Origin: an uncultured archaeon
Lineage (GTDB): Archaea > Altiarchaeota > Altiarchaeia > IMC4 > QMZM01
Length of the DNA stretch: 64,000 nucleotides
Direction of reading: 5' to 3'
Assembly (NCBI GenBank): GCA_964549685.1
Contig: CAZJVE010000001.1
Span: 107,906-171,905, forward strand
Positions 8,546 to 63,705 of this stretch are shown piece after piece. The translations under genes and the position numbers were made by a program. The notes below the pieces were generated by a model. That model was not told where the DNA came from and ran no database searches. It saw nothing but the letters and a program-made list of their open reading frames with translations. Each line of letters opens with the position of its first letter. The first letter of the stretch is position 1.

Positions 8546-9589
8546 CTATTGTTGTATAACTCTGTAAATCCTCGATTCCGAATAGCTGGTAAGGGTGAAT
8601 GGAATCTCCGGGTCTACTACGATTATGTCGTTCTCCTTACACATGAGGGTTTTGTCACCGGCAGTTACCTTTAACTCACCATCCACCACATACATGTAGC
8701 GTGCTGACTCATCCAGGAAATCCACCTGGCCACCATTTTTTATCTTTAGTATCTCTAACTGGTAACTGTAGTGCTTGTCCTTTATGTTATGGATTTTAAC
8801 GCTATGATTTCTGTCCTTTTTTGTTTCATGGGCCTTAATGGAGCTACCGCTTCCTTCCCTGCTCTTTCCATCATAATAATCGGCTTTCCATTTCAGTATG
8901 GATGGCTTTGATTTTACGCTTATGTTTTTGTTAATAAACGCGTTAGGGTTTTCCAGTCTATGAATTGTTTCAGATTCGAAATATGCAATTTCTTCGCTTT
9001 TTATATTAAATTCGTTTCTCAAACCCTTATGTTTATACACTCCCTGGATTTCTGCACCAAGATTCAGGGAATATTCGCTTTGTGGATGGTGATGAAATAG
9101 CTGGACGTGATTGCGTGGCATGAAGGCTATAGTTACTGAGATGTCCATCTCACTCGATGGCTTTGTATGCAACCCCCAGCCCTTTCTCAGTTCTTTAACT
9201 CCATTCGCATTAATCGCATACCTGTTAGGTAGACTATCCCATCTGAGAACGTCTATTGGTGGCTTCGTCTGCATGATGGGATTTTCTCTCAGTATCTGCT
9301 CCCCAATACTCTGTATCTTAACCAGTTTATTCCGAGCACTATCTATTTTTTTATCTCTATCATACTTGAGTAACTCAGAAATCATAAGCTGGCAATTTTC
9401 CGTAAAGTGTCTTGCTATCCTTGCTCTTCGGTGGGTGTCCTCTTTCTTTACCTCACCTCTCCTAAGACCTTTAATCTCTCCTATTAATTTATCCATAACC
9501 CACTTTTCCTTCTCCAGTCTATCAAGAAATTTTGCTACATCCTCAAAGGACTTTATGTCCTTCTTTCTGTAAAGTTCGTCGTATCTCAT
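8546..9589 (-). CDS. Hypothetical protein with cupin-like domains, encoded in an AT-rich segment
   Basis: HHHPQSEY cupin-type metal motif; local GC is clearly below the window average. Confidence 0.4.
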   Translation of the reverse strand: MRYDELYRKKDIKSFEDVAKFLDRLEKEKWVMDKLIGEIKGLRRGEVKKEDTHRRARIARHFTENCQLMISELLKYDRDKKIDSARNKLVKIQSIGEQILRENPIMQTKPPIDVLRWDSLPNRYAINANGVKELRKGWGLHTKPSSEMDISVTIAFMPRNHVQLFHHHPQSEYSLNLGAEIQGVYKHKGLRNEFNIKSEEIAYFESETIHRLENPNAFINKNISVKSKPSILKWKADYYDGKSREGSGSSIKAHETKKDRNHSVKIHNIKDKHYSYQLEILKIKNGGQVDFLDESARYMYVVDGELKVTAGDKTLMCKENDIIVVDPEIPFTLTSYSESRIYRVIQQ

Positions 9590-9670
9590 CTTGGCAGTAT
9601 ATCTACATATGACTAGCTGAATAAGAAAGCATGCGTCTAAATGGGATTTAAACCCTTCGGTTAGCCAGCC

Positions 9671-10246
9671 CTACCCCTTCAGCGTCTCGCAGATTTTCAG
9701 TGCCAGGTTTTCTACCGTTTTCATGCCGGTTTCGTCCTGAAGGGCATCGCCGGGGTTTCTTCCGACTGCTATGCCACCGAAGTGGGCAGTTGTTTTGTCA
9801 GCAACGACAATCATCTCGTGGAGGAGCATCCAGTTTCGTATCTGGTTGGTGGTGAACTCCTGGCCTCCGTTTCTGCTGCCGCCGATTGCTATTGCGCCGC
9901 CAAGCTTTCCTGACAGTTGGTATTTGTTTCTCCGCAGTGGCAGGGTCCTGTCGAAGAGGGCCTTGAGTCTGCTGGAGACGGAAGCAAAGTAGGTGGGAGA
10001 GCCGATGATTACTGCATTGGAATTCTTCATTTTTTCTAGAATTTCAAAAACATCATCGTCGATGACGCATTTATGTGGTGGTTCTTTGCATGCATCACAA
10101 TGAGTACAGAATTCTATTTTTTTATTTGATAAGGATATGAATTCAGTCTCATGGCCGTTATCCTTGCAGACCTCCAGCGCCTTCTTTACAAGGAGGTCGG
10201 TATTTCCCTCGTTTCTGTGCGAGCCCGATATCCCGAGGATTTTCAT
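9671..10246 (-). CDS. Iron-sulfur flavoprotein / NADPH-dependent FMN reductase family
   Basis: Flavodoxin-like start MKILGISGSHRNEGNT and Cys cluster CTHCDACKEPPHKC typical of Isf. Confidence 0.75.
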   Translation of the reverse strand: MKILGISGSHRNEGNTDLLVKKALEVCKDNGHETEFISLSNKKIEFCTHCDACKEPPHKCVIDDDVFEILEKMKNSNAVIIGSPTYFASVSSRLKALFDRTLPLRRNKYQLSGKLGGAIAIGGSRNGGQEFTTNQIRNWMLLHEMIVVADKTTAHFGGIAVGRNPGDALQDETGMKTVENLALKICETLKG

Positions 10247-10275
10247 ATTAGAAAATTGGATTTCATAGATATATC

Positions 10276-13941: not shown

Positions 13942-14358
13942 CTATCTCCTTCTGACGACCTCGAGCTCAAACCCTGCCTTCTTCGCCCCCTTCTGGAGAA
14001 ATTTGGACAGGTCCTTGGAATACAGCCCTGCAACCAGTATATTGTTGAAATACCTGAACTGGTACTTCTTCTGTTCTTCCGGCTTCGTGACCTCAAGAAT
14101 CTTGTGGACATAGAATGGGTGGGGGAATTCTACCCTGGCTGATTTACCGTATTCGCCCTCTCTGATGCTGATTGTTGCCCTGGGTTTTTTTGGGTCCCTG
14201 GGTTTTGCGGGCTTCTTGGCTGGTTTTGGTGCTGGCTTTGCTGCCGGCTTTTCTGTTTTCTTGGTTACCGTCTTTGCTGCCGGCTTTTTGGTTGGTTTTG
14301 GTGCTGGCTTTGCTGCATCCTTCGCCTTCCCGGCCGGTTTCTTTGCTTTTTCAGCCAT
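13942..14358 (-). CDS. Small basic protein with a Lys/Ala/Pro-rich histone-H1-like N-terminal tail and a ~75 aa C-terminal globular domain
   Basis: About 60 aa of KPAAK/KKPA repeats followed by ISIREGEYGKSARVEFPHPF...YQFRYFNN. Confidence 0.5.
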   Translation of the reverse strand: MAEKAKKPAGKAKDAAKPAPKPTKKPAAKTVTKKTEKPAAKPAPKPAKKPAKPRDPKKPRATISIREGEYGKSARVEFPHPFYVHKILEVTKPEEQKKYQFRYFNNILVAGLYSKDLSKFLQKGAKKAGFELEVVRRR

Positions 14359-15568
14359 TTTTATCCAGTAGCAGATTCATGAATTCCGTTCCGTTTCTGA
14401 GGCCATAGGAGCCCTTCTCAGCGGATTTTTCAGTAAAGCTCTCTACCGAATCCCCTTCCCTGGCCGTTGAATAGATTGCAAAGGGAACAGGGTCGGGGGT
14501 ATGAGTCTTTACACTCAGGGGAGTTGCATGGTCGGGGAGAATCCCGATTGTGAATTCCTTGCCCTTCATGCCATCGAGAATTCTCGCAAGGACTCTGATG
14601 TCGATGTTCTCAATCGCCTCTATCTTGTTGTCCAGCAAACCCTCATGGCCGGCTTCGTCGGGGGCTTCGATATGGATGCATACGAAGTCGTTCCTCTCCA
14701 GTGCCTCCATGGCATAGTCTGCCTTGCCCTCGTAGTTTGTGTCGAGGTATGCGGTCGCTCCGGGAACCTCAATGACCTCCATTCCGAGGGTTGCTGCAAT
14801 TCCCTTCAGGAGGTCAACCCCAGATATCAGGGCGCCCTTGAGGTTGAACATTTCATTGAAGGAGGGGACCTTCTTGTTCCTGCCCGCACCCCAGGGCCAT
14901 ATCAGGTTGGCAGGCAGTTTGCCGCCTCCCTCTCTCTTTTTGTTTATGGGATGATTCTGGAGAATTTCCCTGGATTTTTCAATTAGGCCATCTAGAATCC
15001 TTGCTGTGTCTTCTCCCTCGGCGGTCTTTGCCTTTGGAAGATTCTCACTAACAGAACAGTCATGGATGTCGTGGGGGGGTTTGCAGATTATCTCCTCAGA
15101 GTATTTCCCGGAGAGAACGATAATGTGCCTGTAGCCTCTGCCAGGGTAGAATTTTATGTCTGTAGTGCCTAACTCTTTGTCCAGCTCTTCTATCAGAACA
15201 CTCGCTTCCTCGTCACTTATGTGTCCGGCGCTGTAGTCCTTAATCATACCGTCAGTCTCATTAATCAGATTGAGCCTTATCGCTATCTCGCTGTTCTTCA
15301 GTTTGATTCCAAGGCTTCTGGCTTCCAGGGGGCCTCTTCCGCCGGGATAATAAACCTTTGGGTCATAGCCAAGGACTGCGAGGTTTGCAACGTCGCTCCC
15401 GGCTTCGAATCCTTCGGGTATTGTCTTCAGGAGGCCGCAGCGCCCGTTCTTTGCGATAAAATCCATTGCCTTGGTTTCTGCCTTCTCCAGAGGGGTTTTT
15501 CCTCCGAGCTGTTCCAGGGGATAGTCAGACATGCCATCCCCGACTACAATCATATATTTCATATCCAA
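14351..15568 (-). CDS. apgM: 2,3-bisphosphoglycerate-independent phosphoglycerate mutase, archaeal type
   Basis: N-terminal MIVVGDGMSDYP and overall ApgM-family similarity. Confidence 0.85.
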   Translation of the reverse strand: MDMKYMIVVGDGMSDYPLEQLGGKTPLEKAETKAMDFIAKNGRCGLLKTIPEGFEAGSDVANLAVLGYDPKVYYPGGRGPLEARSLGIKLKNSEIAIRLNLINETDGMIKDYSAGHISDEEASVLIEELDKELGTTDIKFYPGRGYRHIIVLSGKYSEEIICKPPHDIHDCSVSENLPKAKTAEGEDTARILDGLIEKSREILQNHPINKKREGGGKLPANLIWPWGAGRNKKVPSFNEMFNLKGALISGVDLLKGIAATLGMEVIEVPGATAYLDTNYEGKADYAMEALERNDFVCIHIEAPDEAGHEGLLDNKIEAIENIDIRVLARILDGMKGKEFTIGILPDHATPLSVKTHTPDPVPFAIYSTAREGDSVESFTEKSAEKGSYGLRNGTEFMNLLLDKNG

Positions 15569-29723: not shown

Positions 29724-29911
29724 AGCAGACGTATCTGAAGAGGATTGCCAACGAGCTCCTTGAGAAATACAGGGGGGAGTTCGGCAAGGACTTTCAGAAG
29801 AATAAGGAGAAGGTGCATGAGCTAAGCACTGTAGAGAGCAAGGCCATAAGGAACAAGATTGCAGGCTACATAACGAAGGTTATGAAGAGGGAAGCGGTAG
29901 AGGCAAGCTAG
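29711..29911 (+). CDS. rps17e: 30S ribosomal protein S17e
   Basis: MGRIKQTYLKRIANELLEKY is a canonical S17e N-terminus. Confidence 0.88.
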   Translation: MGRIKQTYLKRIANELLEKYRGEFGKDFQKNKEKVHELSTVESKAIRNKIAGYITKVMKREAVEAS

Positions 29912-30699
29912 ATTTCATAGCACTTTTTCTTATAGCCGCATGCTTCGCATTTCTTTTCTGAGCCGTGGGAGCAGATTTCAGGGATTTTCCCCTGAAGGAT
30001 TTCTATTATCTCATCTCTTGTATTGATTACCTCCCTTCTCAGTTTCTCCGTTGTCATGACGGGCCTTCTCTCCTGGATTCTGGTATATTCGACAAAGCCG
30101 TGGGTTATTGGCTCCTTCAGCTTGAATTTGTCCTCAAGGAGCATTGCATAGGCACACGTCTGGAGGCGGTCGCCCTCCCATACTCCGTCTGACGGCTGGC
30201 CCGTCTTTATCTCTACCGGAACGTAGGTTTCATCGAGCATTATCTTGTCAACTCTCCCTGTAATTCCAATGCTGTCTGACTTTATGTAGTATTCTACCTT
30301 CCACGGAGTCACCATCTGCAGGGCCCGGTCGATTCCAAGCTCCTCGACAATAATTCCCAGCTTGGTGCTTATGGTTCCGATTTCTTTCAGCAGCTCCGAC
30401 CTTATGGCAGGGATGAAACTCTCATAGCGGGCATCCTTTAGCATTCCCTTGTAGATGGAGGGAAAGTCCTGCATTATCTGCTCCAGCTCCTGCAGCAGGA
30501 GAATTTCCAGCTCGTCAGGATGTTGAATCTTACCTAGTAACTTCGCCTGCCTCATGCTGAGTTCTTTTCTTACTGCATGTCCTAACAGTCCCTTGGTCTG
30601 CCCTTCTGTGGGTTTGGTCTTTATCTTCAATACCTTAGAAAGATAGATGTTCCTGGGGCAGAAGGTGTACTGGTTCAAGGTAGAGGCATTGACATTCAT
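29908..30699 (-). CDS. Cas4-like PD-(D/E)xK nuclease with 4-Cys Fe-S cluster (DUF83 family), not CRISPR-linked
   Basis: N-terminal Cys (YTFCPR), D (GRVDKI), ExK (VEIKTG), QxxxY (QTCAYAML), C-terminal CX8CX2CX5C. Confidence 0.7.
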   Translation of the reverse strand: MNVNASTLNQYTFCPRNIYLSKVLKIKTKPTEGQTKGLLGHAVRKELSMRQAKLLGKIQHPDELEILLLQELEQIMQDFPSIYKGMLKDARYESFIPAIRSELLKEIGTISTKLGIIVEELGIDRALQMVTPWKVEYYIKSDSIGITGRVDKIMLDETYVPVEIKTGQPSDGVWEGDRLQTCAYAMLLEDKFKLKEPITHGFVEYTRIQERRPVMTTEKLRREVINTRDEIIEILQGKIPEICSHGSEKKCEACGYKKKCYEI

Positions 30700-33779: not shown

Positions 33780-34574
33780 TCATAAAACCATCAAACTAAC
33801 CCCAAATCCAACAATCAGCCCCGCACAAATCGGGGGCAGTGCTGGAAGTGCGACTTTTTCTTGGTTCAGAATGTAGACAAAGAGTAGGGTTATGCCGATT
33901 AATCCCCCGGCTGCTGTGATGGCCGCGTTCGTGAAGGAATAATCCCTCATCACAGAGACCGAGAAGATAAGGGGAACTGCCAGGTCTCCCGTTCCGAGGC
34001 CAAGGAACCTGTCGCCGAAGGGGATTGTGAACATCAGCGGGATTTTGCCTTCGGCTCCCTTTGCGAGGGTTATCATGTGTTTTGTGCCGAAGACTGCAAC
34101 AAGGTCGTAGGCCGAGAGGATTAGGATGAGTATGAGGGCTGGGATGAATGCTATTGAGGAACCAAACAGCGCCCCGATGCCAGGAATCGTGAAGAGAAGG
34201 ACTATGTTCATGACTGCCGGGTTCCTGCTCTTCAGGATTGAGAGGATAAATAGAGCCGCTGCCAGAAGCAGGCCGATGAAATCGAAGAGAACCCAGAGGG
34301 TGAATGAAAGGCCGACTACTAGGAAGAAAAAGGACATAATTTTTATAATAAAATATAGCCCGAATTTCAGTAGCAGGAGCAGTATTCCCGTCCCGATGAG
34401 AATGTAAACGAAAATTATCAATGAGGTGAGGGGGTTATCCGGCTCCTCTATTACCGGGGCAATCTCCCCTGATTCTATCGCCCCTATCAGCTCGGAACCA
34501 ATATGCAGGCCCATCAGCTGAATGGAAACGTAAAGAAGGATTATCAGTATCAGGGGCTCGTATTTCATTCTCAT
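33780..34574 (-). CDS. Presenilin/signal-peptide-peptidase homologue (intramembrane aspartyl protease, A22 family)
   Basis: YD motif (SAYDLVAV), GxGD motif (GLGTGD), PAL motif (LPALPP) in a polytopic membrane protein. Confidence 0.7.
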   Translation of the reverse strand: MRMKYEPLILIILLYVSIQLMGLHIGSELIGAIESGEIAPVIEEPDNPLTSLIIFVYILIGTGILLLLLKFGLYFIIKIMSFFFLVVGLSFTLWVLFDFIGLLLAAALFILSILKSRNPAVMNIVLLFTIPGIGALFGSSIAFIPALILILILSAYDLVAVFGTKHMITLAKGAEGKIPLMFTIPFGDRFLGLGTGDLAVPLIFSVSVMRDYSFTNAAITAAGGLIGITLLFVYILNQEKVALPALPPICAGLIVGFGVSLMVL

Positions 34575-36595
34575 CTATGTTCTGTGAACATGAATTTCCC
34601 GTGCCTGGGCTCGTAGATTATTCCCTTTGTCTTTAATTCGGTTATTATCTTCTCTGCCTTGAACTTGTCTATCTCCTTGCCTTCTGCCTCTCTAATAATG
34701 TCCTCCATGTGAGCGGAGCCGTCGCCGCTTTCGGCAAGAAGCCCCCTTATGATGTCCTCCATCAGCTTTATCTTGTCCCTGTCCGATTTTGGATATTCCG
34801 CACCGATTCTGTCGATGTCTATCTCTCCTGTTGCGGCGTCATAGGCGACCTCCCTAAGCACGAAGTTTGTGAGTCTTATTGCTCTGTCTGCATCGCTGAC
34901 TGTTACCGCGTCGCTCAGCCTTATCTTTGCCGATGCCTCGGCCAGCCTTACTAACGCCTCTAGCTGTCTTGGGGTTGCCCTTACTGTTTCCTGGCTCCCG
35001 CCCCTCAAATCCACGTAGTACGCCTTTATCTTCTCCGCCGCATCGTCCGTCATGACGGGACGCATGTTCTTGCGCGAATATGCTATGTACTTCCTGAACA
35101 ATTCCGCATTAATTACCGGCTGGATTTCTTCGGCTTCCTCCGGCGTCTTGTGCATCTTGAGCATGTGGTCTGCTATTTCCGCGTCCTTCTCCTTGTCCAG
35201 GATGTCTCTGATAGGGAAAATGAGGTCAAATCTGCTTAGTAGGGTTGGGGGTATATCGAACTGCTCGCCCAGCGGCTTGTAGCTGTCGAACCTGCTGAAT
35301 TTTGGATTAGATGCTGCGAGGACCGCAGTATTTGCAATGAACCTTGTTACCATCCCAGCCTTCGCCACGCTAATGGTTTGCTGCTCCATCGCCTCGTGCA
35401 TGGCACTTCTGTCTTCCTTGTCCATCTTGTCGAACTCGTCAATGCAGACGACTCCGCCTCCTGCAAGAACCAGTGCTCCTGCCTTCAGGGTCCATCCACC
35501 CTCACCGAAGTCGTCCTTCTCTGCCGTGGCTGTAAGGCCCGCCCCGGTTGTGCCTTTGCCGGTAACATAGATGCTTTTTGGTGCTATCTGGTTAACGTAC
35601 TGAAGAATTCTCGATTTAGCGACACCGGGGTCTCCGACGAGAAGAAGATGTATATCCGGTCTGAGGGGGGTTCCGTCAGGAAGCCTCTTCCTTCCCCTTC
35701 CGCCAAAGAGCTGTAATGCGATGGCTTCCTTGACCTCGTTGTAGCCCCAAATTCCGGGGGCGATTGATGCTATTACATGGTCATGAATCTTGGGGTTCTT
35801 GGCAAACTTCTTAATCTCCCTCTCTTCTTTCTTGCTAATTTCGATGTCCTCGAACTCCCTGGCTATTCCCTCAATGTTGTTGCCTTCAATATATTTGAGG
35901 TAGACCGAGCCGCCTTTCTTCGGGGGGAGGAGTCTCATTATGCCCGTGATTACAACACGGTCTCCTGCATAGACCGCATCGGTCAAATCATCCTCCACCC
36001 ACACCTCTATCCTTCTCGCTTCCGCACCTCCCTTGAGCATCTCCAGCGGCTCCTGAATCTCCAGCTTCTGGATGTCTGTCAGTTTTGATTCCTCGGGTAC
36101 AAAGCGAAATTCCCGTCTCTTGCAGTTATTGCAGAACGGGGGCTGCTGCAGAAATCTTGTCGCCTGCGGCTCATCGTGCGATTCATTGCATTTATTGCAG
36201 TAGAATCTGCCGGTTTCAATCTTCGGGAAGATGTCAGTAATCTTGTTAACAAGGCCCTCAAGGGCCATCATCCCCCCTACATTTTTGGATCTGAGTTCTC
36301 TAACGAGAATAGTATAGCCCTTCTCCTTGGGGATGTTATAGAAACGGACGTTTATCCTGAGGTCGTCCATTAGTTCTGGCGCAACCGAGATTTTTTCCTT
36401 CAGAAGAGTCTGGAGGATTTCCAGTATATCGTCGGGATTCGCAATTAACTCCTCAGCAAGCCCGTGGTCAAATTTCTCAAGCTCTTCATAATTGATGAGG
36501 AGGCTTTTTACCTCGGGATAGAGCTCAGCAACCTTGTTTATGTCATTGGACTTCTTGTTTAGAAACCCCTCAAGCTTATCGTTGACTTTTTCCAT
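34571..36595 (-). CDS. mcm: MCM replicative helicase
   Basis: N-terminal Zn finger (CNKCN...CNNCK), Walker A GDPGVAKS, Walker B IDEFDKM, arginine finger, winged-helix C-terminus; size shows no intein. Confidence 0.9.
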   Translation of the reverse strand: MEKVNDKLEGFLNKKSNDINKVAELYPEVKSLLINYEELEKFDHGLAEELIANPDDILEILQTLLKEKISVAPELMDDLRINVRFYNIPKEKGYTILVRELRSKNVGGMMALEGLVNKITDIFPKIETGRFYCNKCNESHDEPQATRFLQQPPFCNNCKRREFRFVPEESKLTDIQKLEIQEPLEMLKGGAEARRIEVWVEDDLTDAVYAGDRVVITGIMRLLPPKKGGSVYLKYIEGNNIEGIAREFEDIEISKKEEREIKKFAKNPKIHDHVIASIAPGIWGYNEVKEAIALQLFGGRGRKRLPDGTPLRPDIHLLLVGDPGVAKSRILQYVNQIAPKSIYVTGKGTTGAGLTATAEKDDFGEGGWTLKAGALVLAGGGVVCIDEFDKMDKEDRSAMHEAMEQQTISVAKAGMVTRFIANTAVLAASNPKFSRFDSYKPLGEQFDIPPTLLSRFDLIFPIRDILDKEKDAEIADHMLKMHKTPEEAEEIQPVINAELFRKYIAYSRKNMRPVMTDDAAEKIKAYYVDLRGGSQETVRATPRQLEALVRLAEASAKIRLSDAVTVSDADRAIRLTNFVLREVAYDAATGEIDIDRIGAEYPKSDRDKIKLMEDIIRGLLAESGDGSAHMEDIIREAEGKEIDKFKAEKIITELKTKGIIYEPRHGKFMFTEHR

Positions 36596-43552: not shown

Positions 43553-44314
43553 ATGGCTAGGGTAATCGGTGTTCTTTCGGGGAAGGGTGGTGTTGGAAAG
43601 ACTACTCTCGTTTCTAATCTTGGTGTGTCTTTGGCTCAGGAGGGTAAGAACGTCGCCATTGTTGATGCAAACCTTACCGGCGCTAATCTGGGACTTCACT
43701 TCGGCTTGCTAAGCTATCCGGTTTCCATTCACGACGTCATGAGTGATGAGGCGCTGATAACGGATGCCATGTACAAGCACCCATCTGGAGTAGACATAGT
43801 TCCCGCGTCCCTCTCTATCGAGCATATAGATACCGAGCCAAGGAACCTGAGGAGCTCGATTGACGAATTTCTTGGCGATAAGGATTTCGTTCTGATTGAT
43901 GCCGCAACCGGTCTGGACAGGGAGACATTAAATGCGATAGACATGTCTGATGAGGTTCTTATTGTCACGCATCCGGAGCTTCCTACGATTTCAGATGCAT
44001 TAAGAACAAAGACCATAGCAGAGAAGTACGGTAAGGATGTCATAGGTATCGTCCTTAACAGAGTGAACAGGAAGGACGAGCTGAATAAGGATAACGTGTC
44101 ATCATTCTTTGAGCTTCCTGTTATCGGCGCTATTCCTGACGACCCCGTGGTTAGGAAATCCATCGAAGCCAAGAATCCGGTAGTTTTGAGTCACCCGAAC
44201 CACAGGGTAAGCAACGAGGTAAGGAGGGTGTCAAGCCATGTATTGGGCAAGAAATACAAACCAGTAAGCAACGGCGGCTTCCTGGACAGGCTTCTGGCTA
44301 TGTTTAAATGGTGA
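43553..44314 (+). CDS. minD: MinD/ParA-family ATPase
   Basis: Deviant Walker A GKGGVGKTT. Confidence 0.8.
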   Translation: MARVIGVLSGKGGVGKTTLVSNLGVSLAQEGKNVAIVDANLTGANLGLHFGLLSYPVSIHDVMSDEALITDAMYKHPSGVDIVPASLSIEHIDTEPRNLRSSIDEFLGDKDFVLIDAATGLDRETLNAIDMSDEVLIVTHPELPTISDALRTKTIAEKYGKDVIGIVLNRVNRKDELNKDNVSSFFELPVIGAIPDDPVVRKSIEAKNPVVLSHPNHRVSNEVRRVSSHVLGKKYKPVSNGGFLDRLLAMFKW

Positions 44315-44697
44315 TTCAGGTTCTCAACAAGAGCAGGGGTTTTGTTATAAGCGAATCCTGTGGTGTAGCTGATTCTTTCTTCTCCAGGTTCAGGGGGCTG
44401 ATGCTTTCAAAGCCAAGGGACCTGGTTCTTGTTTCTCCGAGGGAGGACATAAAGTCCTCGGCGATTCACATGCTGTTTATGAGGTTTCCCATAGATGCTG
44501 TGTGGGTAGATTCAAAAATGATTGTTGTTGATATTAAAAAAAATATTAAACCTAATTCCCTAGGGATTTTCAGGCCGGGGAAGCCGGCTAAGTTTGTTGT
44601 GGAGCTGGGGGTGGGGAAGTTAGGCACTACAGAAGTTGGTGACATAATTGAGTTCTCACATCCCGGCCCCGCCGAGCCGCTTCATCAGCCGCTTTAG
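44308..44697 (+). CDS. DUF192 family protein; carries an in-frame copy of the recurrent 15-mer
   Basis: COG1430-like pattern; KLGTT is encoded by AAGTTAGGCACTACA at 44617..44631. Confidence 0.55.
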   Translation: MVIQVLNKSRGFVISESCGVADSFFSRFRGLMLSKPRDLVLVSPREDIKSSAIHMLFMRFPIDAVWVDSKMIVVDIKKNIKPNSLGIFRPGKPAKFVVELGVGKLGTTEVGDIIEFSHPGPAEPLHQPL

Positions 44698-49849: not shown

Positions 49850-49866
49850 TTATCCAATCATTCGTT

Positions 49867-49941
49867 GGGCCCGTAGCCTAGCCTGGATAGGGCACCGGAC
49901 TTCTAATCCGGAGATCACGGGTTCGAATCCCGTCGGGTCCG
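49867..49941 (+). tRNA. tRNA-Arg (anticodon TCT)
   Basis: Cloverleaf: acceptor GGGCCCG/CGGGTCC, D-arm GCCT..GGGC, anticodon arm CCGGA-CTTCTAA-TCCGG, T-arm ACGGG-TTCGAAT-CCCGT. Confidence 0.85.
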
Positions 49942-50125
49942 TTGAACTGGCGTCAGTGTGGCGGAGCGACTTCGTCGCTCCGACATATGTCCGAGAGGCT
50001 GCGCCTCTCGGCCACATTCACACCGGAGCGAGTTTGTGGGTTCTTTGAACCCACATAACGCACTGTGAATTCCCCTGCGGTTCAGGGGGGAATTCTGCCA
50101 GTCACGTGTGGGTTTTTCTTTTAGA
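49942..50125 (+). other. Compact multi-hairpin structured element immediately downstream of tRNA-Arg, ending in an oligo-T tract (candidate ncRNA or DNA palindrome cluster)
   Basis: Four near-perfect stem-loops: 49963..49981, 49991..50011, 50036..50054 and 50067..50095. Flanking imperfect direct repeats GGCGTCAGTGTGG / GCCAGTCACGTGTGG. T-run at 50111..50125. Confidence 0.5.
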
Positions 50126-52067: not shown

Positions 52068-53531
52068 ATGCGCCTTGAGAGCATAGATAGCACCAGAGAC
52101 GTTGAAATTGTAAGAGACCCAATGGCCAGGATTGTTGGGCAGAGTGGTGCTATAGAACGAGTCAAGGTCGCCATAAAACAGAGAAGACACCTGCTTCTTG
52201 TTGGTCCCCCCGGAATCGGGAAGTCTATGATTGCTCAGGCGATTGCCCTTTCCCTTCCAAAGCCAGAAGAGGAGATTCGTATTCTTCATAACCCAGAGAA
52301 TCTGGAGAGGCCAGTTCTCAAGGTTGTATCTGGAGGGGAGGCCAGGGAGGAAGAAGCGCCACCGTCTGCTGATGAGCGGACCGTTAGCCCGCAGTCTGTT
52401 CCGTCCTTTGTTGCGGAGCGCCTTGGCTTCCGATGCTTTGTTTGTGGAGCAATAAGCGGCGCACGGGAGCGGACGTGTCCCTCCTGCGGAGCAAACAAAT
52501 ATAAGAAATTCGCATGGAACCAGCAGAGCTCGCCCCTTGGGGAGATAATAACTGAGGTCTTTGAGATTGAGGGGGAGGGTCCCGAACTGGAGGTGAAAAC
52601 AGTAACTGCCGGGCCCTCTGGAAAGGAACGCGTTGTGGTCTACCGCAGGACAGATGAGGGGAGGATTATGGTTCTGCAGGGGGGGGAGTTAGAGGGGCCG
52701 GCTCAAGAAAATGCTCCCCCGGCAACGAAGGTTCTGGTTCCACTTGGTAGGGCCCCGTTCGTTCGTGCTACTGGCGCCTCAGAGACCGAGCTTTTGGGCG
52801 ATGTAAGGCACGATCCGTATGGTGGCCACCCAGAGATTGGGGCCCCCGCGTATCAAAGGGTTGTTCCTGGTGCGATACATGAGGCTCATGAGGGCGTTCT
52901 CTTCATAGACGAGCTGCCTTCCATGGAGCATTTGCAGGGCTTCATCCTGACCGCGATGCAGGAAAAGAAATTTCCAATTATTGGCAGAAATCCGCACTCC
53001 TCCGGGGCTTCGGTAAAGGTCGAGGCCGTGCCCTGCGACTTTGTTTTTGTGGGCGCGTGTAACACGCGGGAGCTTGCCGGGATGCTTCCTGCCCTGCGCT
53101 CCAGAATTGTTGGTTCGGGTTATGAAATATTGCTGGAGACTACGATGCCTGATTGTGAGGAGAACAAAATGGCTTTGGTCAGGTTTATTGCACAGGAGAT
53201 TGAATTGGACGGCAGAATCCCCCACGCCAGTAGGGGGGCCGTTGAGGAGATAATAAAGGTTGCCAGAAAGCGGGCATTAGAGATAGATGGTGTGAGAAAC
53301 GCCCTCTCCCTTCGCCTTAGAGAGCTCGGGGGCCTGATACGGCTTGCGGGGGACATTGCCGTGTCTGAGGGCACGGAATTTATAGAAGGAAAGCACGTTA
53401 AGGAGGGCATCACGGAAACAAAGCCCATAGAACACCAGTTAAGGGAAAAATACGGCTCTGTTTGGAAGGGGCTGGAGCGCGATAGTTATATTGATTCTAC
53501 CCAGGACCCCCGGCTTGAGGGTTATGGGTGA
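52068..53531 (+). CDS. LonB-like AAA+ ATPase lacking a protease domain, with Zn-ribbon insertion
   Basis: LonB-type N-terminus, Walker A GPPGIGKS, CxxC...CxxC insert, Walker B FIDELP, no S16 Ser-Lys domain; the track ORF starts at GTG 52056. Confidence 0.55.
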   Translation: MRLESIDSTRDVEIVRDPMARIVGQSGAIERVKVAIKQRRHLLLVGPPGIGKSMIAQAIALSLPKPEEEIRILHNPENLERPVLKVVSGGEAREEEAPPSADERTVSPQSVPSFVAERLGFRCFVCGAISGARERTCPSCGANKYKKFAWNQQSSPLGEIITEVFEIEGEGPELEVKTVTAGPSGKERVVVYRRTDEGRIMVLQGGELEGPAQENAPPATKVLVPLGRAPFVRATGASETELLGDVRHDPYGGHPEIGAPAYQRVVPGAIHEAHEGVLFIDELPSMEHLQGFILTAMQEKKFPIIGRNPHSSGASVKVEAVPCDFVFVGACNTRELAGMLPALRSRIVGSGYEILLETTMPDCEENKMALVRFIAQEIELDGRIPHASRGAVEEIIKVARKRALEIDGVRNALSLRLRELGGLIRLAGDIAVSEGTEFIEGKHVKEGITETKPIEHQLREKYGSVWKGLERDSYIDSTQDPRLEGYG

Positions 53532-53577
53532 GGGGGGACATTTCCGGTATTCTGGCGTGTCTTTGTTTTGGGTAGGA

Positions 53578-53680
53578 GTTAGGCACTACGTTCTGATTTC
53601 GGGGGCCCGAGTTAGGCACTACACTAAGGCATCAAAACTTAGGCACTACAAAACCAAAAGTAGAATAAGTTAGGCACTAC
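53578..53680 (+). repeat. Array of four direct copies of 12-mer GTTAGGCACTAC (15-mer consensus RAGTTAGGCACTACA), with 16-21 nt spacers, in a convergent intergenic region
   Basis: Exact copies at 53578, 53611, 53638 (first base C) and 53669; first unit followed by a GGGGG run. Confidence 0.85.
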
Positions 53681-53749
53681 ATAAAAATAGAATTGGTTGG
53701 GTGTCCTCTCAGATCAACGAATATTTAGACGCTGCGCGTTTCGGCTTAA

Positions 53750-54061
53750 CTATTCCTCGGCCGCTGCTTCCTCAGCACCGGCCACTACCAATTTACCGAA
53801 TTTCCCTGTGCTTACTTGGATTTCGCCGCGATACTCTTTCGCCCATCCATTCTCTATAACTATCTTGTCGTTTGCCTTTACTTGGTCCGCCTGTTCGTTC
53901 CAGAGGGTTAGGTTTATCTCGCCGGTTTCGTCCTTCGCCTTGGCGTTTGCCACTCGACCGGTGCCTCTAAAATTGGTAAACTCCCGTGGTTCCTCAACCT
54001 CAACTACCTCCACCTCAAGCACGTCAACGGGCTTGTTTGGCTGAACATCCTTTATCTGCAT
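53750..54061 (-). CDS. OB-fold nucleic-acid-binding protein (short RPA/SSB-like)
   Basis: Single OB-fold pattern and acidic C-terminal tail (AEEAAAEE). Confidence 0.55.
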   Translation of the reverse strand: MQIKDVQPNKPVDVLEVEVVEVEEPREFTNFRGTGRVANAKAKDETGEINLTLWNEQADQVKANDKIVIENGWAKEYRGEIQVSTGKFGKLVVAGAEEAAAEE

Positions 54062-54129: not shown

Positions 54130-54939
54130 CTATACTCCTATTTTAATCCTATTATTAATCTCTTTTAGAATAGCGATAGTAGATAGTGCTGCGAGATAGC
54201 TTGTTTTTGGGTTGTTAGGAGAGGGTAGGTTTTCCATCCTGACTTTGAATTCCCCAAACTCTCCTTTAACACGAATTTCATGAATGTTCCTCTCCACACC
54301 CGGGTCCGCTATTATTCTTAGTTTCGTTTTATCAAACCCTATGCCTGCCAAAGAGAGGGTGGCAGCAACATTAACGTTTTTTGGGAATTTTTTGATTCCC
54401 TCTCTTGCAGAACCATCATAGAGCACGGTTTCTTTGTCGGTTGTAGTGCCTAACTCTGCCGGGGGCTTCCGCGTTGTCAATTCAACCGAGTCGATTCCCT
54501 TGGCTTTGGCTGCCTTTATCCCATCCAAACCAGCAACCGCCCCGGAGGGAAGATAGACCGTGCTTTTGTTTTTATTGCTGCTCTCCACCAGCCCGTTAAA
54601 CACCGTTTCATCAGCAAGGGCACCGACACTCATTATAATCAAGCCCCGGCCGGAATTCAGAACCCCCACCCCATATTCCTTCACCGCGTCCTGCGACGCC
54701 GCCTCAACTATCAAATCAGTGCCCTGGAGCAGGCCCTCGAAGGAGCCTGCAACGCTTGGTTTCCTACTCAACGACTCTGCTAATCCTCTGGCTCGCTCGG
54801 CGTCCTGGTCAAAGACGGCAACCAGGCTGCAATTAACCTCTCCGTTATCAATTGCCTCGGCCAGAATTCTGCCGATGTTCCCGCAACCAAGGAGGCCGAT
54901 TCTCATCTTCTTCCCTTCCCTACTTATCTCCTTATCCAT
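54130..54939 (-). CDS. nadX: L-aspartate dehydrogenase
   Basis: Rossmann start MRIGLLGCGNIG and the NadX-family C-terminal domain. Confidence 0.75.
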   Translation of the reverse strand: MDKEISREGKKMRIGLLGCGNIGRILAEAIDNGEVNCSLVAVFDQDAERARGLAESLSRKPSVAGSFEGLLQGTDLIVEAASQDAVKEYGVGVLNSGRGLIIMSVGALADETVFNGLVESSNKNKSTVYLPSGAVAGLDGIKAAKAKGIDSVELTTRKPPAELGTTTDKETVLYDGSAREGIKKFPKNVNVAATLSLAGIGFDKTKLRIIADPGVERNIHEIRVKGEFGEFKVRMENLPSPNNPKTSYLAALSTIAILKEINNRIKIGV

Positions 54940-57504: not shown

Positions 57505-57813
57505 ATGTTCCGTCTTGTGTACATAACCTGCGGCGGCAATGAGGAAGCGGAAAGGATTTCCGACGCTCTCGTTAAGGAGAAGCTTGCAGCATGCGTGAAT
57601 TTCTTCCCAATAAACTCCGTATTTGAATGGGAAGGGGAAATAAAACAGGAAAAGGAGTTCGCCATGCTCTGCAAAACGACGCAGGACAAAATCCCCCAAC
57701 TAAAGAAAAGGGTGAAGGAGATTCACAGCTATGAGATTCCCGCAATCCTCATTATAGAAATAAAAGAGGGAAACGAGGAATTCCTTAGGTGGGTTGATAA
57801 GTGCCTGGAATAG
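57505..57813 (+). CDS. cutA: Divalent-cation tolerance protein CutA
   Basis: CutA1 family: LAACVNF, WKGEI-like region, 100 aa. Confidence 0.75.
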   Translation: MFRLVYITCGGNEEAERISDALVKEKLAACVNFFPINSVFEWEGEIKQEKEFAMLCKTTQDKIPQLKKRVKEIHSYEIPAILIIEIKEGNEEFLRWVDKCLE

Positions 57814-57816
57814 TTT

Positions 57817-57906
57817 GTAGTGCCTAACTCTGCAGTGGTGTGGTGCTTAACCTTTGGTGCTGTTTTGTAGTGCCTAACTTTATTATGCCGTGTTGTAGTG
57901 CCTAAC
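57817..57906 (-). repeat. Array of three exact and one degenerate copy of the same 12-mer in reverse orientation (GTAGTGCCTAAC), in a convergent intergenic region
   Basis: Exact copies at 57817, 57867 and 57895; degenerate GTGGTGCTTAAC at 57840. Confidence 0.85.
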
Positions 57907-57928: not shown

Positions 57929-58507
57929 CTACTCTCTGAGAACCTTCCCGGACCGCAAATCAATAACCTTCGACGGCTTCCCCACCCTGCACGGCCCGGA
58001 GTCGATAACGAGATCTGCTCCATCCTTTATCCTATCAGAAATCTCCTCGACGCTGGTGGGGGGCGCCTCACCAGAGGCATTCGCTGAGGTGGTTATTATT
58101 GGAACCCCCGCGGCATCGACGACTCTCCTCAATGCTGCGTGGTTGGGAATCCTCACCCCAACCGTGTCCTTACCAGCAGTAACGGCATCGGGAATTCTAG
58201 ATTTTTTCTTTAAAATGAACGTGTATGGTTTACCAATATTATCAAGTATGAATTTTCTCTCCCCCACACCGACAACTGCGTACTCCTCAACCATCTCGAT
58301 GCTGGAGAAGGCAACGGACAGCGGCATGTCTCTACTCCTCTTCTTAATCTCAAAAACCCTCTCTACGCCGGGGGATTCTATGGAGCAACCGAGTCCATAG
58401 ACGGTATCTGTCGGATATACAATAAGCTTACCCGCCCTCAAAAACTCCGCAGCGCATAGAATCTTATCCTCTTCAGGGTTATCTGGAGAAATTCTTAGAA
58501 TCTTCAT
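57929..58507 (-). CDS. YrdC/Sua5-family L-threonylcarbamoyladenylate synthase
   Basis: YrdC domain motifs (VYPTDTVYGL, SANASGE). Confidence 0.8.
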   Translation of the reverse strand: MKILRISPDNPEEDKILCAAEFLRAGKLIVYPTDTVYGLGCSIESPGVERVFEIKKRSRDMPLSVAFSSIEMVEEYAVVGVGERKFILDNIGKPYTFILKKKSRIPDAVTAGKDTVGVRIPNHAALRRVVDAAGVPIITTSANASGEAPPTSVEEISDRIKDGADLVIDSGPCRVGKPSKVIDLRSGKVLRE

Positions 58508-60243: not shown

Positions 60244-61476
60244 ATGTTTATCGGTTTGGATGATACGGACTCCCTGAAGGGGGGATGCACCACTTACCTA
60301 GCAGCGCTGCTGTGTAGGGAGCTAGGCACTACAACACGCCCCCGACTCATCCGGCTCAACCCGAACATCCCCTACAAGACAAGAGGCAACGGCGCAGTCG
60401 CAATTGAGGTGGATGGAAACCCTGCTAGAATAAAGGAAACGGCCCTGAAACTGGTCAAGAAACGCGCCCACACCCAGGACAAGAGAACAAACCCCGGTGT
60501 GGCATTCATTGATAATCTAAATTCAAAAAATAAAGACATTTTAAATGAATTCTACCAGAGAGCGGTCTCAGAACTCGTAACGATAGAGGAAGCCGATGAA
60601 ACCGCAGCAAGGGCTGTGGCCGAAACCCACAAATTCAACAACGGCAGGGGCATCATCGGCGCACTGGCAGCAATCGGTGCAGAACTTGATGACAGGACCT
60701 ATGAGCTAATTGCCTACAGGACGAAGGAGAACTGCGGCAAGCCGAAGAAGATAGACGAGGATTCCGTATTCTTGATGCATGAACAATTCCACCCCAAGGT
60801 ATTCAACTCCATTGACCCAGAGACGAATCAAATCCTTATAACCCCACACGGCTACGACCCGGTCTTCTGTGGCATCCGGGGAGAATCTCCCGGCGCAGTT
60901 TTGAAAGCATGGAAGGCCATAAAACCCCTGGAAGAGATAGAACTCACCCAAATATTTGAGACAAACCAAGCTACAGATGCTCATTTGAGAAATAGAAAAA
61001 TCTCTGAATTAAAGCCCCATGACTGCGCAATTCTGGAAGGCGCCGTTGCCAAAGACCCAAGAACAATCGAGGGCGGCCACGTGCTCTTCTCAATTGCTGA
61101 CAGCACGGCAGAGATTGATTGCGCGGCCTACGAGCCAACAGGAGGATTCAGAGAAATAGCAAGGAAACTGCTGCCCGGGGACAGGATTCGTGCCTACGGC
61201 GGGATTGGAAAATATATTAATACTCTAAACCTTGAGAAAATTGAAATTTTAGAATTGGTTAAGGCCTACAAGAAGGAATCTCCTGCCTGTTGCGGCCGGA
61301 GGATGACCTCAGCAGGAAAAGACAAGGGCTTCAAGTGCAGGAAGTGCGGCAAGAGAAAGGACTCGAACTCTGCAGCAACCCAGGAAATTCCCCGGGGACT
61401 TAAAGAAGGATTCTACGAGGCACCACCCAGGGCGATGAGGCACCTGAGCAAGCCGATAATAAGGGCGCAGCAGTGA
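60244..61476 (+). CDS. tiaS: tRNA(Ile2) 2-agmatinylcytidine synthetase
   Basis: MFIGLDDTDS N-terminus and C-terminal Zn ribbon (CRKCGKRK); carries an in-frame 15-mer copy (ELGTT). Confidence 0.8.
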   Translation: MFIGLDDTDSLKGGCTTYLAALLCRELGTTTRPRLIRLNPNIPYKTRGNGAVAIEVDGNPARIKETALKLVKKRAHTQDKRTNPGVAFIDNLNSKNKDILNEFYQRAVSELVTIEEADETAARAVAETHKFNNGRGIIGALAAIGAELDDRTYELIAYRTKENCGKPKKIDEDSVFLMHEQFHPKVFNSIDPETNQILITPHGYDPVFCGIRGESPGAVLKAWKAIKPLEEIELTQIFETNQATDAHLRNRKISELKPHDCAILEGAVAKDPRTIEGGHVLFSIADSTAEIDCAAYEPTGGFREIARKLLPGDRIRAYGGIGKYINTLNLEKIEILELVKAYKKESPACCGRRMTSAGKDKGFKCRKCGKRKDSNSAATQEIPRGLKEGFYEAPPRAMRHLSKPIIRAQQ

Positions 61477-61563
61477 ATTTCAACAGACAAAACCGATATG
61501 TAGTGCCTAACTTTTCTCCAACCTATTTAATCCTCCACTCCTAATTCTATTACACTCCCAGAG

Positions 61564-63705
61564 ATGGAAAACAACTACAAATCCAAGGTCAAGGTAAGGA
61601 CGTCCAAGACAACTTTTGAGAGATTTGACAGCGAAAAGATAACGAAATCCCTGGTGCGGGAGACCGGCCTTGACGAGAAGAAATCAAGAGAGGTAGCGGA
61701 GGCAGTCGAGGCGGAACTTCAGGGACTTAAGCTCGAATACGTCACTGCTCCATTAATCAGAGAGATAGCAAACGTAAAGCTGCTTGAGCACGGCCTTGAG
61801 GACGTAAGGGCCAAATATACCCGTCTCGGAATGCCAGTCTATGACGTAAAAAACCTGATAGAGCTCCCCTCAAAGGAGAACGCAAACCTGCAATATAATC
61901 CTGAATCCATTCATAAGCTTCTTGCAGACCAGGTCTCTAAGGAATATACTCTGATAAACGTGCTTCCTCTGGAGCTGGCAGACGCTCACATGGCGGGCGA
62001 AATCCATATTCACGACCTGGACTACTTCATAAGGCCCTTCTGTTTCAGCCATGATATAAGATTCTTCCTAAAGAACGGCTTCAAGGCCGATGGGATTGGC
62101 AACCACACAGCAATTGCGGGGCCCGCAAAGCGCCCCGAGGTAGCCTTCCTCCATGCAGCAAAGGTCCTTGCAGCATCGCAGACAAACTGTGCGGGAGGAC
62201 AGGGCTTCAGCTTTTTCAATACATTTCTTGCGCCCTTCATAGCAGGCCTTGACTACAAGAAGATAAAACAGCTGGCCCAGATGTTCATCTACGAGCTGTC
62301 GCAGATGTACGTTGCAAGGGGCGGCCAGGTTGTTTTCAGCTCAATAGACTGCGACATGTCGGTTCCAAAGCAGTTCAGGGACATCCCCGCAATCCTGCCC
62401 GGCGGGGACGTCAAGGAATCTGTAACATACGCGGACTTTGAGGACGAAACAAGAAGTTTATTTAATGCAATCCTTGATGTCTATCTCGAGGGGGACTGCA
62501 TAGGAAAGCCCTTTAATTTCCCCAAATTCGAGGTACAGGTTCACCCTAAGGATCTAAAAAACGGCAAGAACGATGAAGAATTGATGAGGGTATCGGAGCT
62601 GGCTGCAAAATTCGGAACCCCATATTACATAATAAACCAGCCATACATGCCGGAATTTGCTTGCTACCAATGTTGTTCGTTCCTTATGCCGTTAGACGAA
62701 TCATCAACAGATGATGACGTAAGGGACGGAACCATAAGGGGTGGCGGTCTGCAGGTTATAACAACAAACCTGCCGCAGATTGCTTATGAAGCAAATGGCA
62801 ACGACGACAAATTCTTCGAGCTCCTTCAAGACAGGATGGAGAAGGCAAAGAAGACGCTCCTGCTGAAAAGGCAGACCATAACGAGAAACCTTAACAACAA
62901 CCTGCTTCCATTCATGGGCCAGCCGGTAAACGACAAGGAGAGATACCTTGAGGTTGACAAGCAAAGCTACATAATCGGGCTAGTTGGCATGAACGAAGCC
63001 GTAAAGGCACACACAGGGGAGGAGCTACACGAGTCGGATAACGCATGGAAATTCGGTCTTAAGGTAATGAAGGCGATGAAGGACACGGTAGCACAGTTCA
63101 GAGACGAAACGAAGCTCAACTTCACTCTTGCTAGAACCCCTGCAGAATCATCTGCTTACAGGCTCGCTCAGATAGACCTTAAGAAATACGGCGACAAGGC
63201 AGTAGTGAACGGCGAAAATGATTCGGCCTACTACACCAACTCATTCCACACAAGGCCCTCGGCAGAAATTCCCCTATGGAAGAAGCTCACAGTAGAAGGG
63301 GCCTTCCATCCCCTAACAGACGGGGGGGCGCTGAGTCACGTATATCTTTCGGAAAAGAACCCGAGCCCCGAGGGCATATATGAACTGACAAAGAAGATTG
63401 CAACAAAGACAGCCATACAGTATTTCGCCTTTACTAAGGACCTCTCAGTATGCAGCAAATGCAACTTCACCTCCGGCGGGCTTGTTAATGAGTGCCCGAA
63501 CTGCAACTCCAAGAACATTGACTGGTGGTCCAGAATCACGGGATACTATCAGAACGTTGCAGGCTGGAACAAAGGCAAACTGGCAGAGCTTAGCGAAAGG
63601 AGAAGGTACGGTCTTTCCGACGACTCAGGGGAACTCTCATTAAACGTAAAGAAGAAACTCAGCAAGGAAGGCAAAGCCAACTGGAATGGGAACTTTGACT
63701 TTTAA
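61564..63705 (+). CDS. nrdD: Anaerobic ribonucleoside-triphosphate reductase (class III)
   Basis: N-terminal ATP-cone, C-terminal Zn site CSKCN...CPNCN, glycyl-radical loop RITGYY. Confidence 0.85.
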   Translation: MENNYKSKVKVRTSKTTFERFDSEKITKSLVRETGLDEKKSREVAEAVEAELQGLKLEYVTAPLIREIANVKLLEHGLEDVRAKYTRLGMPVYDVKNLIELPSKENANLQYNPESIHKLLADQVSKEYTLINVLPLELADAHMAGEIHIHDLDYFIRPFCFSHDIRFFLKNGFKADGIGNHTAIAGPAKRPEVAFLHAAKVLAASQTNCAGGQGFSFFNTFLAPFIAGLDYKKIKQLAQMFIYELSQMYVARGGQVVFSSIDCDMSVPKQFRDIPAILPGGDVKESVTYADFEDETRSLFNAILDVYLEGDCIGKPFNFPKFEVQVHPKDLKNGKNDEELMRVSELAAKFGTPYYIINQPYMPEFACYQCCSFLMPLDESSTDDDVRDGTIRGGGLQVITTNLPQIAYEANGNDDKFFELLQDRMEKAKKTLLLKRQTITRNLNNNLLPFMGQPVNDKERYLEVDKQSYIIGLVGMNEAVKAHTGEELHESDNAWKFGLKVMKAMKDTVAQFRDETKLNFTLARTPAESSAYRLAQIDLKKYGDKAVVNGENDSAYYTNSFHTRPSAEIPLWKKLTVEGAFHPLTDGGALSHVYLSEKNPSPEGIYELTKKIATKTAIQYFAFTKDLSVCSKCNFTSGGLVNECPNCNSKNIDWWSRITGYYQNVAGWNKGKLAELSERRRYGLSDDSGELSLNVKKKLSKEGKANWNGNFDF

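Follow-up and report, generated by a model that had tools for sequence, protein, structure and literature searches.

The window analyzed here is a 64-kb stretch of DNA that matches Logan metagenome contigs. Within it, an AAA+ ATPase gene of the Mg-chelatase/'Lon-like' family (52068-53531, forward strand, 487 aa) and an OB-fold (OB_Ssb-like) gene (53750-54061, reverse strand) converge on a 218-bp gap that contains four head-to-tail copies of a 12-nt motif on the forward strand (array A, 53578-53680). The window is part of a Ca. Altiarchaeota genome, and the closest homologs of its ATPase are named Altiarchaeota or Altiarchaeales; here and below, taxon names on contigs are the labels given by their depositors. 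Three copies are exact GTTAGGCACTAC (53578-53589, 53611-53622 and 53669-53680), while the third in order (53638-53649) reads CTTAGGCACTAC, with a C at position 1; the spacers are 21, 15 and 19 nt long, in order. In sequence, coordinates and position between the 3' ends of the two genes, the array agrees with a preliminary description of this DNA, which had also reported a pattern AAAA..TAGAAT shared by the spacers and a run of five G residues after the first unit. The spacer pattern holds for the last two spacers but not for the first, and the G5 run is present 11 nt past copy 1, the other three copies being without one. Several replication genes lie in the same region: DnaG is encoded next door, MCM at 34571-36595, and the OB-fold gene is SSB-like.

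A T-rich tract, TCTTTGTTTT (53560-53569, forward strand), follows the stop codon of the ATPase gene and precedes the first copy of array A, and a TATTTTTAT tract (53681-53689, reverse strand) lies 61 nt past the stop codon of the OB-fold gene. Oligo-T is a known termination signal in archaea. By analogy, the TCTTTGTTTT tract is likely the intrinsic terminator of the ATPase gene, and the TATTTTTAT tract, on the other side of the array, is likely the terminator of the OB-fold gene. Array A is thus placed between two probable terminators.

A second array (array B, 57817-57906, reverse strand) occupies the convergent gap between the CutA gene (57505-57813, forward strand) and the Sua5/YrdC gene (57929-58507, reverse strand). 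It consists of three exact copies (57817, 57867 and 57895) and one decayed copy, GGTTAAGCACCACA, at 57839-57852. A single intergenic copy (61500-61511, reverse strand) is found between the TiaS (60244-61476) and NrdD (61564-63705) genes, both of which are on the forward strand, so that the copy is antisense to both neighbors. Three further exact copies are located inside genes, in sense orientation and in the frame that encodes L-G-T-T: in the phosphoglycerate mutase (apgM) gene (copy 15162-15173, reverse strand; gene 14351-15568), in a DUF192 gene (copy 44619-44630, forward strand; gene 44308-44697) and in the aspartate dehydrogenase gene (copy 54443-54454, reverse strand; gene 54130-54939). 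A one-mismatch copy, GCTAGGCACTAC (60321-60332, forward strand), near the start of the TiaS gene has the same orientation and the same frame. The window therefore holds 10 exact copies of the 12-mer, 11 exact copies of an 11-mer core and the one-mismatch copy at 60321; the figure of at least 12 copies given earlier stands if near-copies are counted, but not for exact ones. Of the 14 convergent junctions in the window, only 2 have an array, so the arrays cannot function as a general terminator. The unit of 12 nt and the spacers of 11 to 21 nt also bear out the earlier view that the arrays are not CRISPR, whose repeats measure about 23 to 50 nt. A Cas4-like gene is present 23 kb away, with no CRISPR array there.

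The over-representation of the word noted in the preliminary description proved robust. The 10 exact copies in the window compare with an expectation of 0, and no 12-mer match occurred in 100 dinucleotide-preserving shuffles of the window. In 148.6 kb of DNA that had not been selected for the motif (the window together with loci L124 to L126 and L368), 32 exact, 6 one-mismatch and 4 two-mismatch copies were counted, against expectations of 0.018, 0.64 and 10.5, respectively; in DNA fetched by protein homology, the density is about one copy per 2 to 7 kb. The extended form of the motif is rrRAG-TTAGGCACTAC-Aww, that is, the conserved unit comprises the 12-mer, a purine-rich 5' flank and, on the 3' side, an A plus an A/T-rich flank, and nothing beyond these flanks is conserved at a fixed distance from the 12-mer. 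Exact copies that far outnumber near-copies would suit a DNA-uptake or 'self-identity' sequence, for which a surface receptor or a self/non-self system prefers DNA with the word, and biased uptake or recombination, or selection, accumulates exact copies throughout the genome. We regard this explanation as unlikely, and one observation against it is that a stretch of 29 kb in the window holds no copy.

A second argument against uptake comes from the distribution of the word across lineages. A scan for AGTTAGGCACTACA in one genome per species (596 Gb) returned at least 120 matches. Of the 120 matches listed, 54 came from archaeal groups (Altiarchaeota, Micrarchaeota, Iainarchaeota, Pacearchaeota and unnamed archaeal metagenome-assembled genomes (MAGs)), while the remaining ones were single hits in unrelated bacteria, at the level expected by chance for 596 Gb. 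These archaeal matches, which extend beyond Altiarchaeota to several phyla of very small, DPANN-type archaea, include at least 10 Altiarchaeota MAGs, and a single MAG often has several contigs with the 12-mer. A metagenome scan for two copies 8 to 38 nt apart yielded 117 loci, 115 of them credible, with GC contents from 26% to 65%. Two long satellites, L164 with a 15-bp unit and L215 with a 29-bp unit, were considered as giant arrays and set aside as probably unrelated because their neighbors are eukaryote-like (cyclophilin and reverse transcriptase-like ORFs). The DUS and USS dialects of bacteria diverge within families; here, in contrast, the identical 12-mer recurs in several phyla over this whole range of GC content, instead of the lineage-specific dialects expected of an uptake sequence.

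The placement of the motif was analyzed for 235 non-redundant sites, which were classified with a gene caller based on a codon model, whose output for the window matches the gene calls of the collection. Although 85% of the DNA is coding, 72% of the sites are intergenic. When loci holding the motif-associated protein family (see below) are left out, convergent gaps hold 2.1 copies per kb of intergenic DNA, tandem gaps 0.82 and divergent gaps 0.20, a roughly 10-fold excess of convergent over divergent. The mapping of copies relative to gene ends, a check proposed in the preliminary description, showed that they cluster past 3' ends: where a site faces the 3' end of a gene, the two are separated by a median of 33 nt, compared with 110 nt where it faces a 5' end. 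Enrichment past gene 3' ends is a further trait in favor of uptake, as is the use of both orientations with no bias relative to transcription. The head-to-tail order of arrays (123 of 125) is strict, however, and the inverted terminator pairs of uptake sequences are nearly absent, only 3 of 170 neighboring pairs being inverted and the other 167 direct. Motif spacings peak at 22, 33 and 44-45 bp; a helical phasing of the sites was considered and dropped, since the spacing classes are in part homologous array families.

These data also bear on a reading at the RNA level, according to which transcripts would be bound at the motif, within 3' untranslated regions, by a small RNA or an RNA-binding protein, or the arrays would be tandem small-RNA genes. 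Both arrays and all four genic copies of the window are sense to an adjacent or enclosing gene, and 21 of the 146 sites that face a gene 3' end overlap the stop codon. However, a copy in a convergent gap is trivially sense to one of the two genes, and the apparent 'always sense' orientation of the window arrays is lost once many loci are considered: of the copies in tandem gaps, 41 run in the sense and 36 in the antisense direction, and close to 3' ends 48 are forward and 56 reverse. The sense excess of genic copies follows from the frames that the word leaves open (three of the six contain a stop codon) and from the encoded peptide. Moreover, array A lies beyond the T-tracts on both sides, has no predicted fold (z = +0.6) and belongs to no known RNA family, an Rfam search at gathering and permissive thresholds having returned tRNAs only and no match to the motif. 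An RNA element is thus highly improbable. The lack of strand preference, fold and Rfam match, together with the head-to-tail arrays, argues instead that the motif is a site in double-stranded DNA.

Comparison with relatives, also suggested in the preliminary description, supports conservation of the motif at a syntenic position. In three genomes whose ATPase is 89%, 64% and 62% identical to that of the window, the motif directly follows the ATPase gene, with 3, 1 and 2 copies, respectively, and this post-ATPase site is therefore kept in four genomes at 62% to 100% protein identity. Copy number and spacing differ among these orthologous arrays, their spacers cannot be aligned, and the G-run is absent from them; slippage could account for the variation in copy number. 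In four relatives (L125, L126, L233 and L058), the motif is instead found upstream of the OB-fold gene. The OB-fold protein was considered as a binder of the motif and rejected, its association with the motif being confined to this one syntenic region. Array B has six exact copies and one near-copy in L124, the 89%-identity relative, and no copy in the 62%-identity relative. The single intergenic copy at 61500 is also conserved in L124.

The preliminary description had further named ORB-like replication elements as a candidate role. On this view, the arrays would be origin-recognition boxes of the archaeal type (ORB or mini-ORB) at a site where replication starts. The G5 run 11 nt past the first copy of array A, the DnaG, MCM and SSB-like OB-fold genes nearby and the cumulative GC skew, which flattens near 54 kb, are the points in favor. 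The G-run follows only one of the four copies, though, and is missing from the orthologous arrays; dyad symmetry is absent, as is an AT-rich unwinding element between inverted boxes; and Orc1/Cdc6 is not among the called genes. In addition, there are two arrays 4 kb apart, copies are dispersed inside genes and over many contigs per genome, and the promoters of unrelated genes use the same word. The origin proposal is thus largely refuted and scarcely credible.

Copies inside genes indicate how the word arises. The DUF192 copy is kept in L124 and L090 while its flanks have diverged. In L126, the DUF192 ortholog has KAGKT where the window has KLGTT, and orthologs of the aspartate dehydrogenase have ALNLPD or SLGLSV at the columns of ELGTTT, in each case with no indel. 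As orthologs differ by substitution and not by indels, the genic copies were not inserted; the word was maintained or re-created. A tailed-virus contig, which encodes a major head protein, carries seven copies, four of which form in-frame doublets that encode KLGTTELGTT in one protein. Origin by substitution at tolerant positions in one favored frame is again a trait that suits uptake, and the viral copies with their KLGTTELGTT doublets suggest a genome-wide pressure over a function at each site. The presence of copies in a virus was unexpected.

A search for a cognate protein pointed to one family. When all ORFs whose start lies no more than 80 nt from a copy were clustered without bias, the top family comprised 28 loci and the next one 4; a separate clustering of array neighbors singled out the same family. 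Its hallmark is a domain of about 45 aa at the N-terminus, with the consensus MAFIRxKxIKGxxYYYLVExxRxxGKVxQKVLxYLG. The domain occurs in stand-alone basic proteins of 45 to 110 aa, which have no catalytic domain, in two-domain proteins, and in fusions to a C2H2 zinc finger and to the N-terminus of glycyl-tRNA synthetase (GlyRS), the last of these being unexpected. The family comprises 3,835 representative clusters (E <= 1e-3), and the domain is nearly always located at residue 1. In the AF2 model (pLDDT 96.6), it adopts a beta-beta-beta-alpha-alpha topology. No match to the domain was found among Pfam, NCBIfam and PDB sequence families, and fold searches of the PDB, in which a fold of the AP2 or integrase arm-binding type was considered, returned nothing significant; the case for DNA binding by the domain thus comes from homology to a transposase and from operator geometry.

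The geometry is that of the family's own promoters. Stand-alone genes have two copies near -50 and -20 with a TATA-like box between them, and GlyRS-fusion genes have copies at -79, -47 and -14 relative to the ATG, TTTAAATA being placed exactly between the second and the third. In about 30 family genes from other lineages, two or three motif copies overlap or bracket the gene's own TATA box and transcription start. Four family members were also chosen irrespective of the motif. One of these, P0174 (locus L368), has exact copies at -58 and -19 and two more within 20 kb; P0163 and P0237 have the variant words GTAGTTCCTAAA and GTAGTGTTAATA at the same position; and the fourth, which lies within an operon, has no site. 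This promoter layout matches that of an autoregulated operator in archaea. It is also the strongest tie of the motif to any gene, and it weighs against uptake, as the small N-terminal-domain protein looks cytoplasmic and its sites look like operators. No gene of the window encodes a family member, and a profile search of about 330 kb of Altiarchaeota DNA detected no stand-alone member. The only member seen in Altiarchaeota is the N-terminus of a transposase, which has a variant word at its own sites. When the domain of this Altiarchaeota insertion sequence (IS) was used as the seed, short ORFs were retrieved; the one that was traced belongs to a bacterial IS in which the N-terminal part forms an ORF of its own.

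The transposase belongs to the IS1634 family and, in an Altiarchaeota relative, is inserted between the DnaG and ATPase genes; it matches NF033559 at 1.5e-50. Its N-terminus is recovered by the profile of the motif-associated domain (HMM E = 1.8e-9), and the two align with 97.4% probability in hhalign (E = 1.3e-11). Judged from these sequence comparisons, the domain of about 45 aa is homologous to the N-terminus of this IS1634-family transposase. The Altiarchaeota IS1634 element has CACTACA-containing words at its start codon and 3' end. In a related bacterial IS, the N-terminal domain is a separate ORF of 43 aa, and CACTACA-type words are found at the promoter and the ends. In one Altiarchaeota MAG, three different TnpB genes are each preceded by a conserved element that includes a motif pair and, after it, TATAAT.

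Such findings raise the question of whether the copies derive from mobile elements, as remnants or miniature forms (solo ends, MITEs or REP-like sequences) spread by a transposase whose N-terminal domain recognizes the word. Besides the homology of the domain, the CACTACA-type words at IS ends and promoters, the repeated element upstream of the TnpB genes and the variable copy number of arrays between close relatives are consistent with this explanation. The inverted-repeat geometry of such elements is nevertheless absent (3 of 170 pairs), and there is no palindromic hairpin. The conserved unit measures just 12 to 18 nt between unrelated spacers, genic copies show no indel relative to orthologs, the stand-alone proteins have no catalytic domain, and the Altiarchaeota IS1634 uses a different word at its own sites. 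Mobile-element remnants are, on this evidence, very unlikely. Membership in a known repeat family such as a MITE, which the preliminary description had named as a finding that would count against its interpretation, was likewise not borne out, there being no inverted repeats and, for the genic copies, no indels.

With moderate confidence, we interpret the window arrays as multi-site platforms for a predicted small, sequence-specific DNA-binding protein with a transposase-related N-terminal domain. Of the three candidate roles named in the preliminary description, a site for a DNA-binding protein is the best supported, by the DNA-level behavior of the motif, its head-to-tail arrays and its link to promoters; the uptake or identity role retains several population-level traits, but the identical word across phyla, the near-absence of inverted pairs and the cytoplasmic-looking protein with operator-type sites speak against it. 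In the proposed mechanism, GTTAGGCACTAC would be a recognition site in double-stranded DNA that is read by a protein built around the three-stranded beta-sheet domain of about 45 residues at its N-terminus, a binding that the association of gene and site suggests. One domain would occupy one copy, two-domain proteins would engage pairs of copies, and the protein would presumably repress its own promoter. Arrays A and B, each in a presumably untranscribed gap between convergent terminators, would be occupied by several molecules of the protein next to one another, and the bound array may serve as a roadblock or boundary between converging genes, as an architectural anchor or as a titration sink. 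The binder gene is predicted to lie elsewhere in this genome. The position of the arrays suits a roadblock or boundary, but only 2 of the 14 convergent gaps in the window have one, and sites show no constant orientation toward the incoming gene (48 forward, 56 reverse); architecture or titration would account for the arrays just as well.

A plain regulator leaves unexplained the pressure that writes the word into host and virus genes, and a DUS-like sequence or 'self-mark' is therefore the main rival of the DNA-binding platform. A broader interpretation, which we put forward only tentatively, would join the two: in several DPANN-type phyla, a domesticated transposase domain might read an invariant 12-mer as genome 'punctuation' or as a self-mark, with cells and viruses both being pressed to carry the word. 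The arrays would then be roadblocks or boundaries, an archaeal counterpart of Reb1 or TTF-I, or else a 'self' mark for a defense or chromosome-handling machine.

If the proposed recognition holds, a word kept letter for letter across phyla with GC contents from 26% to 65% would be paired with a large domain family, and the two would constitute the first genome-wide cis/trans pair for DPANN and Altiarchaeota, one that is testable with a protein of 50 to 75 aa and a 12-mer. It would also mean that a transposase module has been recruited for host genome organization in archaea. The data point, moreover, to an unusual glycyl-tRNA synthetase fused to a putative DNA-binding domain and with operator-type sites on its own promoter, and the motif is of practical use in attributing metagenomic contigs and viruses to these lineages. 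In the open literature searched, the 11-mer appeared in one unrelated primer list only, and nothing relevant was found on DPANN or Altiarchaeota motifs, on uptake sequences or on the IS1634 N-terminal domain. The protein family thus appears to be previously undescribed, and neither the word nor the concept was encountered in that literature.

Several known systems share part of this picture. Like the 12-mer DUS of Neisseria and the USS of Pasteurellaceae, the motif is a short asymmetric word with exact copies in great excess and in both orientations, it is enriched after genes, and its genic copies arise by point substitution at tolerant codons. Unlike them, it is identical across phyla, forms head-to-tail arrays in place of inverted terminator pairs and is tied to the promoters of a family with a putative DNA-binding domain that looks cytoplasmic. 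REP/RAYT, CENP-B with the CENP-B box and InsA of IS1 offer the parallel of a DNA-binding module common to a transposase and to many sites outside transposons. REPs likewise prefer extragenic, 3'-end positions, and the separately expressed N-terminal ORF of the related bacterial IS recalls IS-encoded N-terminal repressors such as InsA. Unlike in these domesticated-transposase systems, there are no palindromic hairpins and no catalytic partner, the archaeal 12-mers stand in direct arrays, and the beta-sheet domain of about 45 aa matched no family in the libraries searched.

ParB-parS and DnaA with the DnaA box resemble the motif in having a site that is invariant over deep divergence, presumably because the protein that reads it is conserved, and that occurs both in clusters and as dispersed single copies, some of them genic; DnaA boxes are also asymmetric. 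The present motif differs in that it is connected neither with an origin nor with partition genes, is much denser (about one copy per 2 to 7 kb) and is strictly co-oriented within arrays. The Sal-box arrays bound by TTF-I past ribosomal DNA, and the sites of Reb1, are tandem asymmetric sites downstream of genes and between transcription units, as in arrays A and B, and in both cases promoters bear sites too. To our knowledge, roadblock terminators of this kind are not known in archaea. As far as the analogy extends, the motif departs from TTF-I and Reb1 in that its orientation relative to the polymerase is not fixed (48 versus 56) and that arrays occupy 2 of the 14 convergent gaps of the window. 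By analogy, then, the motif resembles in kind the high-copy cognate sites of DNA-binding modules that are conserved or domesticated, exemplified by DUS, REP/RAYT, the CENP-B box, parS and DnaA boxes.

The 12-mer is not evenly spread over the window. A 29-kb stretch (15174-44618) is devoid of any motif copy and 10 of the 11 copies of its 11-mer core fall within 44.6-61.5 kb; the distribution in this genome is therefore patchy. Other features of the window include a 36-nt tandem repeat of about three copies with 72% matches (14206-14316), which sits within a minus-strand ORF (13942-14358) that has no match in Pfam, and a gene encoding a Cas4/Csa1-like nuclease (29908-30699), which is flanked by ribosomal protein genes. 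Neither a CRISPR array nor any further cas gene is present in the window.

The same 12-mer is found in long satellites with units of 15 bp (L164, 7-438) and 29 bp (L215, 310-2060). Because their neighbours look eukaryotic (a cyclophilin gene and reverse transcriptase (RT)-like ORFs), these satellites are probably unrelated and contain the word by chance. A tailed-virus contig, L259 (IMGVR_UViG_3300009320_000030), which encodes a major head protein (phrog_544), carries seven motif copies in 10 kb. Four of the seven belong to in-frame doublets (for example, 8693-8719 and 9569-9595), such that KLGTTELGTT is encoded twice in one protein of 489 amino acids. In arrays with a period of 44-45 bp (L165, 858-1090; L193, 2775-2944; and L140, L142, L154, L180 and L135), every motif copy is followed approximately 7 nt 3' by a second conserved box, GCGGAGCA.

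Three different TnpB (IS605 OrfB) genes of the Altiarchaeota MAG JAHIKS01 are preceded by a conserved element of approximately 130 nt that contains a TATAAT box and two motif copies (L006, 400-700; L113, 1810-2100; L101, 4130-4420; L114, 1280-1580). In the 89%-identity relative L124 (6923-8113), a TnpB/IS605-OrfB gene separates the 201-aa gene from the PF1765-like gene; the corresponding stretch of the window (49866-49942) holds a tRNA-Arg(TCT) gene.

An IS1634-family transposase is inserted between the DnaG and AAA+ ATPase genes of an Altiarchaeota relative (L232, 5297-6688, equivalent to L219, 15-1406), a position at which the window has no insertion; the start codon of the L232 element falls within the palindrome TTGTAGTGTATATATTATACACTACAATG. 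In a multi-copy bacterial element of the IS1634 type (L371-L374, around 10001-11364), the N-terminal domain is encoded on its own, by a 43-aa ORF that precedes the DDE ORF, and the element ends are ACCTAAATTTT, with ACACTAC about 20 nt inward.

On low-GC DPANN contigs, the motif-associated domain of approximately 45 amino acids is fused to the N-terminus of glycyl-tRNA synthetase (L031, L136, L151, L157, L160, L162, L184, L186, L204 and L236; for example, L157, 1794-3449, minus strand). The TATA box of these fusion genes is itself bracketed by two to three motif copies. This arrangement looks like transcriptional autorepression by an aminoacyl-tRNA synthetase.
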